Virus record (IMG/VR): IMGVR_UViG_3300044712_000851
Span: 1-32,884 of that record
Origin: a virus
Lineage: Duplodnaviria > Heunggongvirae > Uroviricota > Caudoviricetes
Direction: 5' to 3' (one strand)
Length of the DNA stretch: 32,884 bases
The notes under the pieces were generated by a model. That model was given only the letters and a program-made list of their open reading frames with translations, did not search any database and had not been told where the DNA came from. The translations under genes were made by a program, and so were the position numbers. Shown piece by piece: positions 1,425-15,044 of the stretch (position 1 is its first letter; each line of letters begins with the position of its first letter).

Positions 1425-2597
1425 ATGAATATACGCTTTATAGATCTTTTTGCAGGAATAGGAGGGTTCAGGTATGGACTTGAAAAGACAAAAGGCTATG
1501 AATGTGTCTATTCCAATGAATGGGATAAATATGCAACACAAATCTACGATAGCCATTTCAAGCACCCAAGCACACTCGACGAAAATGGTGGAGATGAGTC
1601 CGACTCTTCCAGAAGCGATGGGGAAAGGTGGGGGTCACGTACCGATGGTGTTGACACAAGAGACATTCGAACAGTCCCCAGCTCGGAAATCCCCGACTTC
1701 GACCTCCTTGTTGGAGGCTTCCCTTGCCAAGCGTTTAGCATCGCTGGAAAGCGTGCAGGATTTAATGACACCAGAGGGACGCTCTTTTTTGAAATCGCTA
1801 GGATTCTCCGAGACAAAAGACCCAGATATTTTATTCTTGAAAACGTCAAAGGTCTACTTAGTCATGACGAAGGAAAAACTCTCCAGACAATCTTTGGGGT
1901 TCTCTCCGACTTGGGGTATGAGTTTCAATGGCAAGTTCTTAACAGCAAAAATTTCGGAGTCCCCCAGAATAGGGAAAGAATCTTCATTGTCGGAAATCTT
2001 AGAGGAGAACGTAGACCAAAAGTATTTCCTGTCTCAGGAACAAGTGAAGAAGATAACCGCAACACAGGGGAAGATTTGTCTTACGCCTTAGATGCAAACT
2101 ATCACAAAGGAACAAACACTTTAAGCAAGGGGAGAAGACAGCTTATCCAAAAGATAGGCGGATCTCAGGGAATGAGGGTTTACGACCCAGAAGGTCTCTC
2201 TACTACAATTGCAGGTTTGGCTGGAGGATGGGGAGCAAAGACTGGTCTTTATGCCATGCAATGGCGTAGGACTGAAAAAGGAAAAGCCGAAAGACGAAAG
2301 AATCAGGCTAACGGACGAGACTACACACCTTTTTCAGACGGAGCTAGGGAAGTTGTTCCTAATCCAGATAAAAAGGTTATTGGAACAATTACCTCTCAGG
2401 CGGTAGCAAAAGACTCATTGGTGGGGAACGAAACCCAAATTCGAAGGCTTACGCCTGTGGAGTGTGAAAGATTGCAAGGATTTCCTGATGGGTGGACTGA
2501 AGGGATCAGTGATACACAGCGTTATAAGTGTTTGGGTAACGCGGTTACTACGAATGTTGTTGAGTGGATTGGAAGACAATTAATTAAAAGCATATGA
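1425..2597 (+). CDS. dcm: DNA (cytosine-5)-methyltransferase
   Basis: DLFAGIGG (I), GGFPCQAFS (IV), ENV (VI), QNRERIFIVG (VIII), RRLTPVECERLQGFPD (IX), YKCLGNAV (X). Confidence 0.95.
   Translation: MNIRFIDLFAGIGGFRYGLEKTKGYECVYSNEWDKYATQIYDSHFKHPSTLDENGGDESDSSRSDGERWGSRTDGVDTRDIRTVPSSEIPDFDLLVGGFPCQAFSIAGKRAGFNDTRGTLFFEIARILRDKRPRYFILENVKGLLSHDEGKTLQTIFGVLSDLGYEFQWQVLNSKNFGVPQNRERIFIVGNLRGERRPKVFPVSGTSEEDNRNTGEDLSYALDANYHKGTNTLSKGRRQLIQKIGGSQGMRVYDPEGLSTTIAGLAGGWGAKTGLYAMQWRRTEKGKAERRKNQANGRDYTPFSDGAREVVPNPDKKVIGTITSQAVAKDSLVGNETQIRRLTPVECERLQGFPDGWTEGISDTQRYKCLGNAVTTNVVEWIGRQLIKSI
1645..2091 (+). CDS. Alternative-frame ORF nested in the methyltransferase (candidate second subunit)
   Basis: +1 frame is open 1474-2091 and encodes SLSEILEENVDQKYFLS, resembling the post-motif-VIII segment of C5 MTases; start uncertain (several in-frame ATGs from 1474; 1645 preferred). 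Confidence 0.55.
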   Translation: MVLTQETFEQSPARKSPTSTSLLEASLAKRLASLESVQDLMTPEGRSFLKSLGFSETKDPDILFLKTSKVYLVMTKEKLSRQSLGFSPTWGMSFNGKFLTAKISESPRIGKESSLSEILEENVDQKYFLSQEQVKKITATQGKICLTP

Positions 2598-2704
2598 GTA
2601 TTTCTATTTGTCCTTACTGCGGAAAAATGATTGATGAGGATTATGATGTTGAACACTACGAGGAGTGTAGGCTGGAGCATGAAGAAAATGACGAGGGGAA
2701 CTAG
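2594..2704 (+). CDS. 36-aa putative zinc-binding peptide
   Basis: MSISICPYCGKMIDEDYDVEHYEECRLEHEENDEGN; ATGA overlap with the dcm stop; below the ORF-track cutoff. Confidence 0.6.
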   Translation: MSISICPYCGKMIDEDYDVEHYEECRLEHEENDEGN

Positions 2705-3338
2705 ACATCTTTTTGGAGACGAAGCTTTAGACTTTCAAAAGGTTACTGAGAGTTTGATTAAAACCGTCACCACTTGGGGATATAAACCTTTCTATCCCTC
2801 AACACTTGCGGATCAGAAGCTCTTTGTAGACAAAGCTGGAGACGAAGTCTTAAACCAAATGTACACCTTTAAGGACAAAGGAGATAGAGACTTATGCCTT
2901 ATTCCCGAAGTAACTGCCGTTGTTCAGAATTTGTATAATGAACACTGGTCTAAAACCCTACCAAAGCCGATTAAGCTCTATTATCTTACTAAATGTTATC
3001 GATATGAACGCCCTCAGGAAGGTAGATATAGAGAGTTCTGGCAGTTCGGAATTGAACTACTTGGCGGAGAGGAAGATATCCTTGTCAGGGATGTTCTTGT
3101 AAATGCTCTTTATAACGTCAATCCACAAGCTTTTGAAAACAATATATATAAATTTAATGGCAAAGTTAAACGGGGTCTGAACTATTATGTCGAAGATGGG
3201 TTTGAAGTAGAAGTTCCCTCTCTTGGTGCACAAAAACAAATTGCTGGAGGCGGAAGATACAAAGAGGGTATCGGATGGGCTATTGGGGTTGATCGGTTAT
3301 TATTGGCTCTAAAAAACCCACTTGACAAAGCGGAATAA
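2679..3338 (+). CDS. hisS: Histidyl-tRNA synthetase-like protein, catalytic core only
   Basis: RGTRHL, MYTFKDKGDRDLCLIPEVT, motif 2 YRYERPQEGRYREFWQFGIE, RGLNYY, GGGRY, motif 3 GWAIGVDRL; about 219 aa; start 2679 or 2688. Confidence 0.85.
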   Translation: MKKMTRGTRHLFGDEALDFQKVTESLIKTVTTWGYKPFYPSTLADQKLFVDKAGDEVLNQMYTFKDKGDRDLCLIPEVTAVVQNLYNEHWSKTLPKPIKLYYLTKCYRYERPQEGRYREFWQFGIELLGGEEDILVRDVLVNALYNVNPQAFENNIYKFNGKVKRGLNYYVEDGFEVEVPSLGAQKQIAGGGRYKEGIGWAIGVDRLLLALKNPLDKAE

Positions 3339-4885: not shown

Positions 4886-5037
4886 TGAAAATTATACAAG
4901 TAATATCTGAACACAAAAAGAACAAGGCTAACCAACAAAAGCCTGGTAGATTTCACACTAAACGTGGATGGGGTGAGGTAACTGTGGAGGAAAATGGTCA
5001 AATTGTTACCAGACACAGACCTCTGGAACAAACATGA
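4885..5037 (+). CDS. 50-aa hypothetical protein
   Basis: MKIIQVISEHKKNKANQQKPGRFHTKRGWGEVTVEENGQIVTRHRPLEQT; fills the gap exactly (TAATG and ATGA overlaps). Confidence 0.6.
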   Translation: MKIIQVISEHKKNKANQQKPGRFHTKRGWGEVTVEENGQIVTRHRPLEQT

Positions 5038-5834
5038 AGACAATTGTAGGAATAAGACCCACAGGAAAATTACATATTGGACACTACTTTAGTGTTATTA
5101 AACCAGCATTAGAAGATGATAATGTCGATGTTTTGGTAGCGACTTACCACATGTCCCCTCCAAGCAGGAAAGCGACAAATGAAGTGTGTGTTGAATTAAA
5201 CAGTTTAGGAATACTACCTAAAATGCAAGAGGTGGATGTAGATTTATATTTTAAATTATTATCTGCTTCTAGGGTGGGAGAGCTTGAGAGAATGATTCAG
5301 TACAAGTCTGTAAAAGTCAAAACTCCTCATCTCCTCGTCTACCCAGTTTTGATGGCACACGATTTGGTTGGATATGACAGGGTAATTGTTGGCGAAGACC
5401 AAAAGCAACACGTCGAATATGCCAACACTCTTTTTAAGCGTCTTGGTATGCCTACCATAAAGGGAGACTTTAGGGGTGGAAGAATAATGAGTCTTACTGA
5501 TCCGACTAAAAAGATGAGCAAGTCCGAGCCAAAGGGTTGTTTGTTTTTAGACGACAACTTTGAAGAAAAACTTAAAGGGGCAGTCACCACCCCAGCAGGA
5601 GTTAAAAACCTTAGTTACATAGCCAGTCAGTTTGGAATGAAGTGGCTTCCAAATGACAACAAGGCTTGTAAAGAACATTTGGCAACTGTATTGGAAAAGA
5701 AGTTTGGTAAAATTGGAGAAGAAAACTGTAATATATATTCTGACAACCTATCAACAGTAGTGTCACCAAAGAAGTTTCAAGAGATACTCAAGTTTATAGG
5801 AGTTCCAAAAAGCCAATGGGAAAAATTTACGTAA
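5034..5834 (+). CDS. trpS: Compact tryptophanyl-tRNA synthetase
   Basis: GIRPTGKLHIGHY (HIGH), GELERMIQYK, YPVLMAHD, GEDQKQH, RIMSLTDPTKKMSKS (KMSKS); 266 aa. Confidence 0.88.
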   Translation: MKTIVGIRPTGKLHIGHYFSVIKPALEDDNVDVLVATYHMSPPSRKATNEVCVELNSLGILPKMQEVDVDLYFKLLSASRVGELERMIQYKSVKVKTPHLLVYPVLMAHDLVGYDRVIVGEDQKQHVEYANTLFKRLGMPTIKGDFRGGRIMSLTDPTKKMSKSEPKGCLFLDDNFEEKLKGAVTTPAGVKNLSYIASQFGMKWLPNDNKACKEHLATVLEKKFGKIGEENCNIYSDNLSTVVSPKKFQEILKFIGVPKSQWEKFT

Positions 5835-9217: not shown

Positions 9218-9266
9218 GTATCTATTGTGTTTTTATCTCTTTCTTGATAGATTATATATACCGCTC

Positions 9267-11288
9267 ATGAATACAAATACAAGAGGTTCTGTCGTCCCTG
9301 AAAAAATTAAGTCGTCTTTTAAAGAGTCAGAAAAGTACTTCCCTACACAATTACAACAATTCCAGTTTTTTGATAAATATTCCCGCTTCGATTGGGATAA
9401 AGGACATCGAGAAACTTGGATGGAAACAGTTGACCGAAGTGTAGACTTTCTAAAAGAACTCAGTCTCAACAAACTTTCTCCAGAAGAATACAGTGAAATC
9501 CGTCAGTACATCCTCGAAATGAAGGCTACTCCTTCTATGCGTCTTCTTGCTATGGCTGGTAAGGCGGCGCGTAGGCAAAACGTCTGTATCTACAATTGTT
9601 CCTTTATGCCTGTCGACAGTATTGATGCATGGGTTGAAGCACTTATTATTTCCATGTCTGGATGTGGTGTTGGATTTTCAGTCGAGAAACAATTTGTAGA
9701 TAAACTCCCCTTTGTCATTTCACAGACAAATACCGATCCAATTAATCATGTTATCGAAGATACTACAGAGGGCTGGGCAAAGGCGGTTAAGACTGGGTTG
9801 GAATCTTGGTTTGATGGTCATGATATTGCTTTTGATTACTCACAGATTCGTCCAGCAGGTGCGGTACTTAAAGTTAAGGGTGGTAGGGCTTCAGGTCCAG
9901 AGCCACTCAAAAAAATGCTCGACTTTGCACGTAAAGTCATTCTTAATGCTCAAGGAAGAAAACTCACCTCCCTCGAAGCTCATGACATTATGTGCGAGGT
10001 CGGCAATGCAGCTGTATCAGGCGGAATGAGACGCACTGCAATGATTTCCCTTTTTGACTTTGATGATGATGAAATGAGGAACTGTAAGAATGGAGATCTT
10101 ACGGGTAATGAACAAAGATGGAATGCAAATAACTCAGCTGTTTGGCCTGCAACGATTACAGATACCGACATTAAAAGACAGTTTAAGGAAATGGATGAGG
10201 GTCAACGTGGAGAACCTGGAATCTTTAGTCGCGATGCAGCAAGATCCACAATGCCAACTCGAAGACTGGCTTTGGGTGAAGAGGCTTGGGGTACTAATCC
10301 TTGTGGAGAGATAGTTCTACGTCCTTATGAGTTTTGTAACCTCACAATCGCTGTAGCGAGACCAGACGACACGATAGAAACCCTTAAGGATAAAGTTAGG
10401 GTTGCATCTATAATTGGAACTATTCAATCAATGGGAACAGACTTTCCAGGATTACGGCCTCAGTGGAAGAAAAATTGTGAAGAAGAAAGGTTGTTAGGAG
10501 TCGATATTACTGGGCAGTTGGATTGTCCCATCTTTAATCAAATGTTACAAGATGACGAAGGATATCGAAAGGCATCAGAAGCATTCAAGATTTTAAGAGA
10601 CGTTGCGGTTGAGACAAACAGAGTCTACGCGCAGAGACTAGGAATCAATCAATCCGCGTCAGTTACTTGTGTTAAACCATCAGGAAATTCATCTCAATTA
10701 TTTGGATGCTCTTCAGGTCTTCATGCAAGACATTTCCCTTATTACATCCGCAATGTCAGAGTTTCCGCTCACAGTCCAATCTTCAGCGTCCTCAAGGATG
10801 CAGGAGTTCCAATGGACCCAGAGAACGGTCAGAAAGCAGAAACAGCCGAAACATGGGTTATACACTTCCCAGCCAAGTCTCCAGATGGCGGAAAGATTCA
10901 AGATGATATGACAGTTGAAGATCAGTGCAATGTTTGGCTTAACAACAAACTCAATTGGACAGAACACAATCCGTCATGCACGATTACCTATAAACCAGAT
11001 GAACTAGAGGCATTGACTAATTGGGTAATTAAAAACAAGGATAATGTTGGAGGTCTTTCTTTCTTGCCTCGTTTGGATGCTAAATACGACCAGATGCCAT
11101 ATGAACCCATTTCAGAAAAGCAGTATAATGTGCTCTTATCTGAATTCCCTGCTATAGATTTCAGCCGACTTTACATTTATGAACTAGAAGATTACACTAA
11201 AGCTGCACAGGAACTTGCTTGTATGAGCGGGGCTTGTGAAATTGATTACCAGCCTAATGCGAACGCATCGACTGGGCAGAGTAAGTAG
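9267..11288 (+). CDS. nrdJ: Class II (adenosylcobalamin-dependent) ribonucleotide reductase, monomeric type
   Basis: IYNCSF, GGMRRTA, TNPCGEI, FCNL, TCVKPSGNSSQL, C-terminal ACMSGACEI redox pair; ATG 9267. Confidence 0.9.
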   Translation: MNTNTRGSVVPEKIKSSFKESEKYFPTQLQQFQFFDKYSRFDWDKGHRETWMETVDRSVDFLKELSLNKLSPEEYSEIRQYILEMKATPSMRLLAMAGKAARRQNVCIYNCSFMPVDSIDAWVEALIISMSGCGVGFSVEKQFVDKLPFVISQTNTDPINHVIEDTTEGWAKAVKTGLESWFDGHDIAFDYSQIRPAGAVLKVKGGRASGPEPLKKMLDFARKVILNAQGRKLTSLEAHDIMCEVGNAAVSGGMRRTAMISLFDFDDDEMRNCKNGDLTGNEQRWNANNSAVWPATITDTDIKRQFKEMDEGQRGEPGIFSRDAARSTMPTRRLALGEEAWGTNPCGEIVLRPYEFCNLTIAVARPDDTIETLKDKVRVASIIGTIQSMGTDFPGLRPQWKKNCEEERLLGVDITGQLDCPIFNQMLQDDEGYRKASEAFKILRDVAVETNRVYAQRLGINQSASVTCVKPSGNSSQLFGCSSGLHARHFPYYIRNVRVSAHSPIFSVLKDAGVPMDPENGQKAETAETWVIHFPAKSPDGGKIQDDMTVEDQCNVWLNNKLNWTEHNPSCTITYKPDELEALTNWVIKNKDNVGGLSFLPRLDAKYDQMPYEPISEKQYNVLLSEFPAIDFSRLYIYELEDYTKAAQELACMSGACEIDYQPNANASTGQSK

Positions 11289-13162: not shown

Positions 13163-13429
13163 ATGGCTGCCATAGTACCACTAAATAATTACGTCGTTGT
13201 TGTTGAAGCTATTACAGACCCGATTAAAAAGGGTAGGTTTTATTCGACTGATGAAGTACATGAAATCAAAAGAGGATCTGTTGTGGGTGACAAATCTCAG
13301 GGAAAAGAGTCCCTTTTGGATAAAGAAGTTTTCTACAAGACAGAGGATGCGATTAGTTTGAAGTTTAATGATGAAAATTTAGTCATAATCGATAAGTCTA
13401 AATTATTAGCTTTTACATATAATGCCTAA
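13163..13429 (+). CDS. groES: Divergent GroES-like co-chaperonin
   Basis: IVPLNNYVVV, RGSVVG, EVFY, LVIIDKSKLLA; directly upstream of groEL. Confidence 0.75.
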   Translation: MAAIVPLNNYVVVVEAITDPIKKGRFYSTDEVHEIKRGSVVGDKSQGKESLLDKEVFYKTEDAISLKFNDENLVIIDKSKLLAFTYNA

Positions 13430-15044
13430 AGTAAAGAAAAAGATTTTATTTAACAAAGATGCCAGACAAGCTCTGATTAGAGGAGTCTCTGTTTTGGCTA
13501 AAGCAGTTACGACTACGCTTGGTCCACGCGGAAGGAACGTTGGTTTGGGGAGAAAATGGAATGCTCCTAAGGTTGTTCACGACGGTGTCTCTGTTGCCAA
13601 AGAAGTAGAAGTCGATGATCCATTTGAACAGATGGGTGTGGACATGGTTAGAGAAGCAGCAGAAAAAACCAATACTCAAGCTGGTGATGGAACAACCACT
13701 TCAATTCTATTAGCCGAACAAATAGCCTTAGCTGGAGACAAAGAAGTTGAAACACATGGAGCAAACCCAATGGCTATTCAACGAGGTCTTCAAACCGCTG
13801 GTGAGATAGTCTCCAAAAAACTTCTAGAGATGACTTCTTCAATTGATAGTTCAGAACAAATTACCCAAGTCGCCACTGTCTCTTCAGCTGACCCCGAGGT
13901 TGGTAAAAAGATTGCTGAAGCAGTTGAACGTGTCGGTAAAAAAGGAGTCATTTATGTAGAAGAGGGTAAGGGATTGGATACTTCGATAGAATACAAAGAA
14001 GGTATGGAATTTGACCGAGGTTATGCTTCACCTTACTTTGTCACAGATAATGAACGAGAGGAAACTGAAGTTTCTAATCCATACATCTTTATGACTGCCG
14101 AAAGGATAGTTACCAACAAGCAAATTATGCCTATCCTTAATGCAATTGGAAACATTGAAAAGTCAGATGGTTTTAATGTAGTTATTATTGCTGACAAAGT
14201 AGATTATGAAGCTTTGGGTACTTTATTTGTCAATCACTCAAAAGGAGTCTTGGGTGCTATCCCTATAGAAGCTCCAGGATTCGGAGATAAGCGCGAGGAA
14301 ATACTTGAAGACATCGCGGTTCTTACTGGTGGTCAAGTCTTTTCACCTAAAAAAGGAATGTCTTTTGATCAAATAGACCCGTCAATCTTTGGTAGGGCTG
14401 ATAAAGTTTGGTCTGGCAAGAGTTCCTCAAAAATAATTGGAGGAAAGGGAGACACAGAAGTTATTTCTCTTCGTGTTAAACAACTTGAGAATCAGTTGTC
14501 AAAAGAAACCTCTGAATTTGAAAGAGAAAAAATTGAAGAAAGAATTGCGAGACTTGTGGGAAGTGTTGCGATAATCAATGTTGGGGCTGCAACAGAGACA
14601 GAACTTCACGACAGGAAAGAAAGAATGGTTGATGCTGTTGCTGCTACTAAGGCAGCTGTAGCCGAGGGTATTTTGCCTGGAGGTGGAATAGCCTTACTTC
14701 GTGCGAGAGAAGAACTTAAAAAGACCACCGTTGAAAATCCAGAGGAGCAAATAGGAATCAACATCTTATATGAAGTATTAGGAAGACCAGTTGAGAGACT
14801 TCTTGAACTTGCCAATATTAAAGACTCAAAGACAGCCCTAAAGGAAATAATGAGTTCTAAAGATCCTAACTATGGATGCAATGTTTCTACTGGTGAAATG
14901 GGAGATCTTATAAAATTGGGAATTATCGATCCGACAAAAGTTATCCGCACCGCTCTTCAAAATGCCATATCAGTTGCTGGAATTGTCATTACCACAGAGG
15001 TTTTGATCGCTGTTACGGATATTGTGGAAGGAGGCGAGTCTTAA
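13422..15044 (+). CDS. groEL: Chaperonin GroEL
   Basis: TLGPRGRNV, AGDGTTT, EGMEFDRGYASPYF, APGFGDKR, EGILPGGG, GIIDPTKVIRTALQNA. Confidence 0.97.
   Translation: MPKVKKKILFNKDARQALIRGVSVLAKAVTTTLGPRGRNVGLGRKWNAPKVVHDGVSVAKEVEVDDPFEQMGVDMVREAAEKTNTQAGDGTTTSILLAEQIALAGDKEVETHGANPMAIQRGLQTAGEIVSKKLLEMTSSIDSSEQITQVATVSSADPEVGKKIAEAVERVGKKGVIYVEEGKGLDTSIEYKEGMEFDRGYASPYFVTDNEREETEVSNPYIFMTAERIVTNKQIMPILNAIGNIEKSDGFNVVIIADKVDYEALGTLFVNHSKGVLGAIPIEAPGFGDKREEILEDIAVLTGGQVFSPKKGMSFDQIDPSIFGRADKVWSGKSSSKIIGGKGDTEVISLRVKQLENQLSKETSEFEREKIEERIARLVGSVAIINVGAATETELHDRKERMVDAVAATKAAVAEGILPGGGIALLRAREELKKTTVENPEEQIGINILYEVLGRPVERLLELANIKDSKTALKEIMSSKDPNYGCNVSTGEMGDLIKLGIIDPTKVIRTALQNAISVAGIVITTEVLIAVTDIVEGGES

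Follow-up and report, generated by a model that had tools for sequence, protein, structure and literature searches.

The C5 cytosine DNA methyltransferase (MTase) gene of a Caudoviricetes virus (IMG/VR record IMGVR_UViG_3300044712_000851; the window referred to below is the whole 32,884-nucleotide stretch of this record that was analysed) contains a second gene, overprinted in the +1 frame. This second gene is real, under selection and unannotated. We infer, partly from modelling, that its product (β) is translated, binds the main-frame protein (α) and is needed for activity. In the reading that we favour, to which we give a probability of about 0.65, β is a real second protein that completes the fold of α in trans, and the working enzyme is an αβ heterodimer.

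The main frame encodes a complete C5 methyltransferase

The α protein matches the Pfam profile PF00145 with E = 1.4e-88 and 297.9 bits (curated cut-off 22), and its best solved relative is M.HhaI (6e-64). The main frame contains F.G.GG (motif I), PCQ (IV), ENV (VI), Q.R.R (VIII), R.LT..E (IX) and GN (X), all of which are invariant in the α alignment (A1). A GCGC-like target is plausible for α because its recognition loops (GSQGMRVY... and ...GGWGAKTGLY) align with those of M.HhaI. Compared with M.HhaI, α has two inserts, at residues 47–79 and 280–337. The first (1563–1661) is acidic and Ser-rich, lengthens the β frame and contains several ATGs in the +1 frame; the second (2262–2435) lies between the recognition loops and motif IX. 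An antisense ORF of 101 codons (1544–1849, minus strand) is also found within the MTase gene. The features of both frames are collected in Table 1.

Table 1. Positions in the window of the α gene, the nested β frame and their parts.
Feature	Position	Strand	Basis or remark
α, complete C5 cytosine DNA MTase gene, 390 aa, motifs I–X, M.HhaI-like recognition domain	1425..2597	+	Pfam, M.HhaI match
β, +1-frame ORF, 205 codons and stop, ATG 1474 to TAG 2089–2091	1474..2091	+	ORF list, homologues
GGAGG, Shine–Dalgarno-like site, 8 nt before ATG 1474	1461..1465	+	formed by the Gly-Gly codons of motif I
Family-conserved part of β, residues 58–205	1645..2088	+	alignment A2; database matches start at β residue ~60
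α motif IV, Pro-Cys-Gln, catalytic Cys101	1722..1730	+	P100, C101 and Q102 invariant
β TWGMSF; the same DNA encodes α EFQWQV	1909..1926	+	modelled strand pairing; wobble entropy 0.12 at the Gly of LGY
α motif VIII, QNRER, residues 181–185	1965..1979	+	Q181, R183 and R185 invariant
β C-terminal element SSLSEILEENVDQKYFLSQEQVKKI	1981..2055	+	more conserved than the main frame; wobble entropy 0–0.2 at several columns
α linker GNLRGERRPKVFPVSG	1992..2039	+	main-frame entropy exceeds +1-frame entropy
α motif IX RRLTPVECERLQGFPD, residues 340–355	2442..2489	+	outside the overlap; non-overlap control
α motif X, GNAV, residues 371–374	2535..2546	+	non-overlap control

The nested +1 frame and its start codon

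The β ORF lies wholly inside the α gene (390 codons) and measures 209 codons from stop to stop. An earlier note on this DNA had reported a +1 frame open for 205 codons inside the dcm gene, and both its coordinates and its translation (...TWGMSFNGKFLTAKISESPRIGKESSLSEILEENVDQKYFLSQEQVKKI...) hold on re-examination. The protein ends in SLSEILEENVDQKYFLS. Translation probably begins at ATG 1474, ATG 1645 being a possible internal alternative; the start codon is uncertain because the first 57 residues of β are conserved in close relatives only. Use of the long form from ATG 1474 in the lineage of the window is suggested because silent differences from the nearest relative, L004, are low (0.136 per identical codon, p = 2e-4) over codons 17–73 of the overlap. 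An ATG just after motif I, preceded by a Shine–Dalgarno site, is also the layout of L001, L004, L011, L028, L037 and others, and in most loci an ATG, often with such a site, stands either just past motif I or ~21–25 codons before motif IV.

The position of the start codon differs among relatives, as it could if ribosomes entered the +1 frame by frameshifting from the α frame and made a fusion of the α N-terminus with the β C-terminus. We consider this very unlikely: the frame is open for 100–240 codons upstream of its conserved end, an ATG is present in most loci, and in the split relatives described below gene callers find free-standing β ORFs. Independent initiation of β is the reading adopted here.

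Neither β nor a profile built from it gives a meaningful match to Pfam or to PDB sequences. An exhaustive HMMER search matches β to 964 cluster representatives at E ≤ 1e-3, nearly all of them unnamed metagenomic calls, and a word-indexed search for longer proteins bearing the β C-terminus returned a single split-type β.

The +1 frame is kept open in relatives

Judged from the window alone, the length of the +1 ORF is marginally unusual; a run at least this long arises in 2.5% of synonymous-codon shuffles of the gene (P = 0.025). Across homologues, which are kin and whose counts are not fully independent, the openness of the frame is assessed as far beyond chance. Stops were counted over a stretch of 111 codons, which begins 5 codons ahead of motif IV and ends 25 codons past the start of motif VIII, in a viral sample of 80 loci with relatives fetched (37–82% identity) and three annotated phage loci, and in loci from cellular genomes. 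The earlier note had named stops in close homologues as the observation that would speak against dual coding; the frame is open, with zero stops, in 76 of 77 viral homologues (shuffles expect ~5 per gene) and in 51 of 76 genomic loci, as it is in the window itself. Summed over the viral loci, 14 stops are seen against 407 expected, all 14 of them in one locus, and the +2 frame, taken as a control, has 719 stops against 664 expected. The other 25 genomic loci are canonical, having FIVGFRKD..F.FP.P after motif VIII, and contain +1 stops at the expected rate. The HhaI-like genomic relatives L143, L153 and L158 lack the open frame, with 1, 5 and 9 stops respectively.

Two simpler accounts were rejected. 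Openness is not a by-product of the conserved α motifs, since canonical relatives share these motifs and yet contain +1 stops in the expected number, and it is not a simple frameshift or sequencing error, as motif VIII with the FIVG strand in one reading and the element in the other lie on the same nucleotides and both readings are conserved.

Members of the dual-coded clade are recognized by a lack of +1 stops from upstream of motif IV to ~35 codons beyond motif VIII, by W.GM..NG..LTAK.SESP..G..SLSDILE..V..KYFLS at the end of the +1 frame and by G(H/N)LRG....VFP in the main frame. The window carries this signature, with no such stop and with TWGMSFNGKFLTAKISESPRIGKESSLSEILEENVDQKYFLS (+1 frame) and GNLRGERRPKVFP (main frame). 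Among the members are Streptococcus phages, many uncultured phages, Methanobacterium virus Drs3 and a Methanolobus MAG. A tree was built from the catalytic core (138 rows and a small number of columns, 98); on it 2 changes account for the dual-coded state, whereas shuffled labels take 24, and this fits an essentially single origin of dual coding. The nested chain is under purifying selection in 112 of the 138 distinct core sequences.

The one viral homologue without the nested frame, L043 (IMGVR_UViG_3300028886_000003, 14 +1 stops), has neither GHLRG..VFP nor the canonical FRKD..F.FP.P in the main frame after motif VIII. A subclade from gut Clostridia genomes (L087–L093, L099, L105 and L108) keeps the nested frame with an altered element; its main frame reads QSR(K/R)RVFLICYLD and its +1 frame SLSAILIPDAPEKYFLS. 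The motif IX/X pattern is unmatched in the main frame of nine of these ten loci and matched in L089.

Silent sites are constrained by the +1 protein

Conservation in the two frames was compared by entropy in an ungapped codon alignment of 64 distinct loci. Over motifs IV–VII the main frame is the more conserved (0.6–1.3 bits versus 1.5–2.0 in the +1 frame), and after motif VIII the order flips, with values of 1.11 and 1.81 in the +1 frame and 1.21 and 2.19 in the main frame. Judged by this reversal, the conserved letters of the α linker that follows motif VIII are dictated by the β frame. The family consensus of the selected part of β is RWMNWGMMWNGKCLTAKISESPKTGKECSLSDILEENVDEKYFLSEE, and its counterpart in the window is TWGMSFNGKFLTAKISESPRIGKESSLSEILEENVDQKYFLSQE.

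The wobble base of a main-frame codon falls in the middle of a +1 codon, and its entropy was taken at conserved four-fold columns. It is 1.69 bits in motif IX and 1.91 bits in motif X, both free of overlap, 1.36 bits in the overlap across motifs IV–VIII and 0.69 bits in the overlap after motif VIII, where several columns are invariant. With L004 as reference, silent differences amount to 0.43 per identical codon outside the overlap and to 0.185 in its core (p = 4e-6). The pattern at silent sites shows purifying selection on the protein sequence of β. A check of synonymous sites had been proposed in the earlier note, and its outcome agrees with dual coding: constraint on main-frame silent sites coincides with conservation of the +1 protein (0.69 versus 1.69–1.91 bits).

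These data bear on the view that the open frame is untranslated, either a relic or a side effect, be it of constraint acting on the nucleic acid or of α sequence conservation. The window ORF, taken by itself, is unusual at P = 0.025 only, as such a view would have it. We give it hardly any credence, as +1 stops occur at the expected level in canonical relatives that share the motifs, stops in the +2 frame are near expectation, the silent sites are frozen so as to preserve the +1 amino acids and saturated outside the overlap, and a clade that counts bacterial and archaeal viruses among its members retains the trait, only 2 state changes being needed in 138 rows. Translation of β remains our working assumption below.

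Between 1704 and 2033 the window and L001 (Methanobacterium virus Drs3) are 80% identical in nucleotide sequence over 330 nt, their proteins being 43% identical overall. Part of this identity is probably due to the constraint that dual coding puts on silent sites; exchange of the core module is another possible explanation.

β carries an element that α lacks

Canonical single-chain relatives have L.DILE..V..KYYLS in the main frame, 20–30 residues after motif VIII. The longer pattern FIVGFRKD..F.FP.P..L.DILE..V..KYYLS is present in ~20 of 26 canonical relatives when counted by eye (a strict pattern matched 5). The main frame of the window is without an L.DILE..V..KYFLS element after motif VIII. 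The likeness of the β element to single-chain enzymes was read directly in these canonical relatives and not from a profile score; on this likeness, the C-terminal element of β is the counterpart of the single-chain element after motif VIII that is absent from α. The resemblance of LSxILExxVDxKYFLS to the segment following motif VIII had been noticed before, and is borne out by its presence in canonical main frames and its absence from that of the window.

Relatives also differ in which chain the remainder of the enzyme is attached to. In P0007, P0027, P0064, P0021, P0150 and P0157 β continues without a change of frame through a recognition domain and motifs IX and X. The split relative L084 (on the contig of P0007) has an α of 194 aa (920–1504) with motifs I–VIII and a β of 271 aa (1017–1832) with the recognition domain and motifs IX–X, the two overlapping by ~490 nt. 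P0157 is a close relative of the window gene (63% identical to the β of the window), and its HhaI-like recognition domain and C-terminus nearly match those of the window's α but lie in the β frame. The recognition domain and motifs IX–X are on α in the window, in the pneumococcal Streptococcus phage MM1 and in Drs3, and on β in some other members.

A predicted complex of α and β

Folded alone, β has a pLDDT of 50 and is predicted to be mostly disordered; residues 112–140 of the conserved piece are the exception to this low confidence. For α alone, the large domain is confident and the small domain is poorly modelled, with low confidence. The complex was modelled from α (alignment A1) and β residues 58–205 (alignment A2), both alignments being of our own making. 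Three runs give ipSAE values of 0.81–0.82, the best of three controls scoring 0.00; in a benchmark the ipSAE mark is reached by 58 of 80 solved complexes and by 2 of 110 mismatched pairs. At least 60% of the contacts are common to the runs and the pLDDT of the partner is at least 66. The contacts with least error are formed by β TWGMSF (residues 89–93 of the piece) with α EFQWQV (166–171), the expected error being 0.4–0.8 Å, and by β ILE and YFL with α residues 340–350 of motif IX. About 75 N-terminal residues of the conserved part of β make no confident contact with α in the model. Binding of β to α is thus supported at the level of prediction, and co-folding of the two chains, which the earlier note had put forward as a check, comes out in its favour (0.82 versus 0.00 for the best control). 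The model may, however, place the β element by recall of the single-chain fold.

β could also be translated and have another job, regulating α (inhibiting, timing or targeting it) or acting elsewhere. Selection on β is silent as to which function is selected, the ~75 contact-free residues could bind another partner, and α retains all ten motifs and might be active alone. We nevertheless think such a role unlikely. The most strongly selected part of β is the structural element that α lacks and that single-chain relatives have in cis; the model places this element alongside motif IX and the strand of motif VII in α; and it is on this chain that split relatives have their recognition domain. A β that completes the enzyme remains the preferred reading.

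Comparison with known two-chain methyltransferases

The accessible review text counts only two C5 MTases made of two polypeptides (PMC3404938), and the closest known case is M.EcoHK31I (E. coli HK31, YGGCCR; Lee, Kam & Shaw 1995). As described in two papers (PMC2836561, PMC3404938), its α has motifs I–VIII, the recognition domain and motif X, its β lies in another frame wholly within α, is needed and carries motif IX, and the N-terminal part of β matters for association with α. Compared with this published description, the β ORF of the window is likewise nested in the α gene in another frame. Unlike M.EcoHK31I, the window has motifs IX (RRLTPVECERLQGFPD) and X on α; its β is devoid of motif IX and has the post-motif VIII element alone. 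M.EcoHK31I is part of a restriction-modification system, whereas the window gene comes from a phage and no endonuclease was seen next to it. The suggestion in the earlier note of a two-polypeptide MTase akin to M.EcoHK31I is supported, and its remark that the two may be distinct, the main frame here keeping motifs IX and X, holds.

M.AquI (CYCGRG; Karreman & de Waard 1990) is a two-subunit C5 MTase split in the variable region (PMC3404938). L084 and P0157 have this subunit content, with motifs I–VIII on α and the recognition domain and motifs IX–X on β; the window differs in that the recognition domain and motifs IX–X are on α and β is nested. The overprinted β head of ~130 codons is not described for M.AquI in the accessible text of PMC3404938. 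M.HhaI (GCGC; PDB 1MHT and others) is a monomer that has the element after motif VIII in cis, which the α of the window has not. As read from the genes, the motif distribution of the window differs from both characterized two-chain enzymes.

The layout of the window is shared by orf13/orf14 of Streptococcus phage MM1-1998 (GenBank DQ113772), a pair with homology in each of the two frames; its annotation is ‘C5 methyltransferase alpha subunit / beta subunit’. The MM1 α also keeps motifs IX and X, and the nested +1 ORF is 48% identical to the β of the window over 115 residues and ends in SLSDILEEEVDERYFLS. MM1 β starts later than that of the window, ~24 codons before motif IV, and the recognition domain of MM1 α is different. 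DQ113772 annotates a homologous nested ORF as a β subunit, and the layout had therefore already been recognized. The accessible literature yielded no functional study of orf13/orf14, which are known from annotation.

A model for the enzyme and its history

In the model that we propose, one stretch of DNA would give two proteins, an α of 390 aa from the main frame and a β of up to 205 aa from the +1 frame. α lacks an element that its single-chain relatives have at the start of the small domain. β would be started independently, probably at ATG 1474 behind GGAGG and possibly at ATG 1645. Most of β, overprinted and predicted to be disordered by itself, precedes the last ~60 residues, which hold the missing element. 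TWGMSF of β would add a strand beside the motif VII strand of α, and ILE...YFL would pack on the motif IX strand; the fold would in this way be completed in trans and the enzyme would be an αβ heterodimer.

Such an arrangement may have arisen in steps. A deletion that broke the frame of a canonical gene past motif VIII would have produced a split enzyme, which could be viable because fragments of monomeric C5 MTases complement in trans (PMC3404938). The split form, in which α has motifs I–VIII and β starts with an overprinted head and goes on to the element, the recognition domain and motifs IX–X, persists in close relatives; its head would have been acquired by β in reaching an upstream start. 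A second frame change would then have re-attached the recognition domain and motifs IX–X to α, leaving β nested and still required.

More tentatively, and at somewhat less than even odds, the same may apply to a whole clade of phage and prophage ‘orphan’ C5 MTases from bacterial and archaeal viruses. These would be obligate heterodimers with the second chain overprinted on motifs IV–VIII. A frame change of one base would be enough to join the recognition domain and motifs IX–X to either chain, giving a modular, frame-switchable architecture for the exchange of target specificity that annotation pipelines have missed entirely.

If β is required, phage MTases produced from just the annotated ORF may have no activity or behave abnormally, and prediction of escape from restriction by methylation must include β. 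Among gene pairs of prokaryotic viruses that overlap on the same strand, this one would then rank with the longest and the most widely conserved, and it would offer a natural, ready-made system for the engineering of split MTases.

Genome context

The surroundings of the gene are those of a phage, the window also encoding a ribonucleotide reductase, a GroEL-like chaperonin and a portal protein. The phage-encoded chaperonin (13422–15044) matches phrog_5725 at 6e-142 and the ribonucleotide reductase (9225–11288) matches phrog_367 at 1e-141. Two shortened aminoacyl-tRNA synthetase-like genes are located in the early region of the phage, at 2631–3338 and 5034–5834. One of the proteins is a HisRS core of 235 aa (PF13393, 6.5e-18; PF00587, 3.4e-13) and the other is a class I protein of the Trp/Tyr type with 266 aa (PF00579, 1.3e-24).
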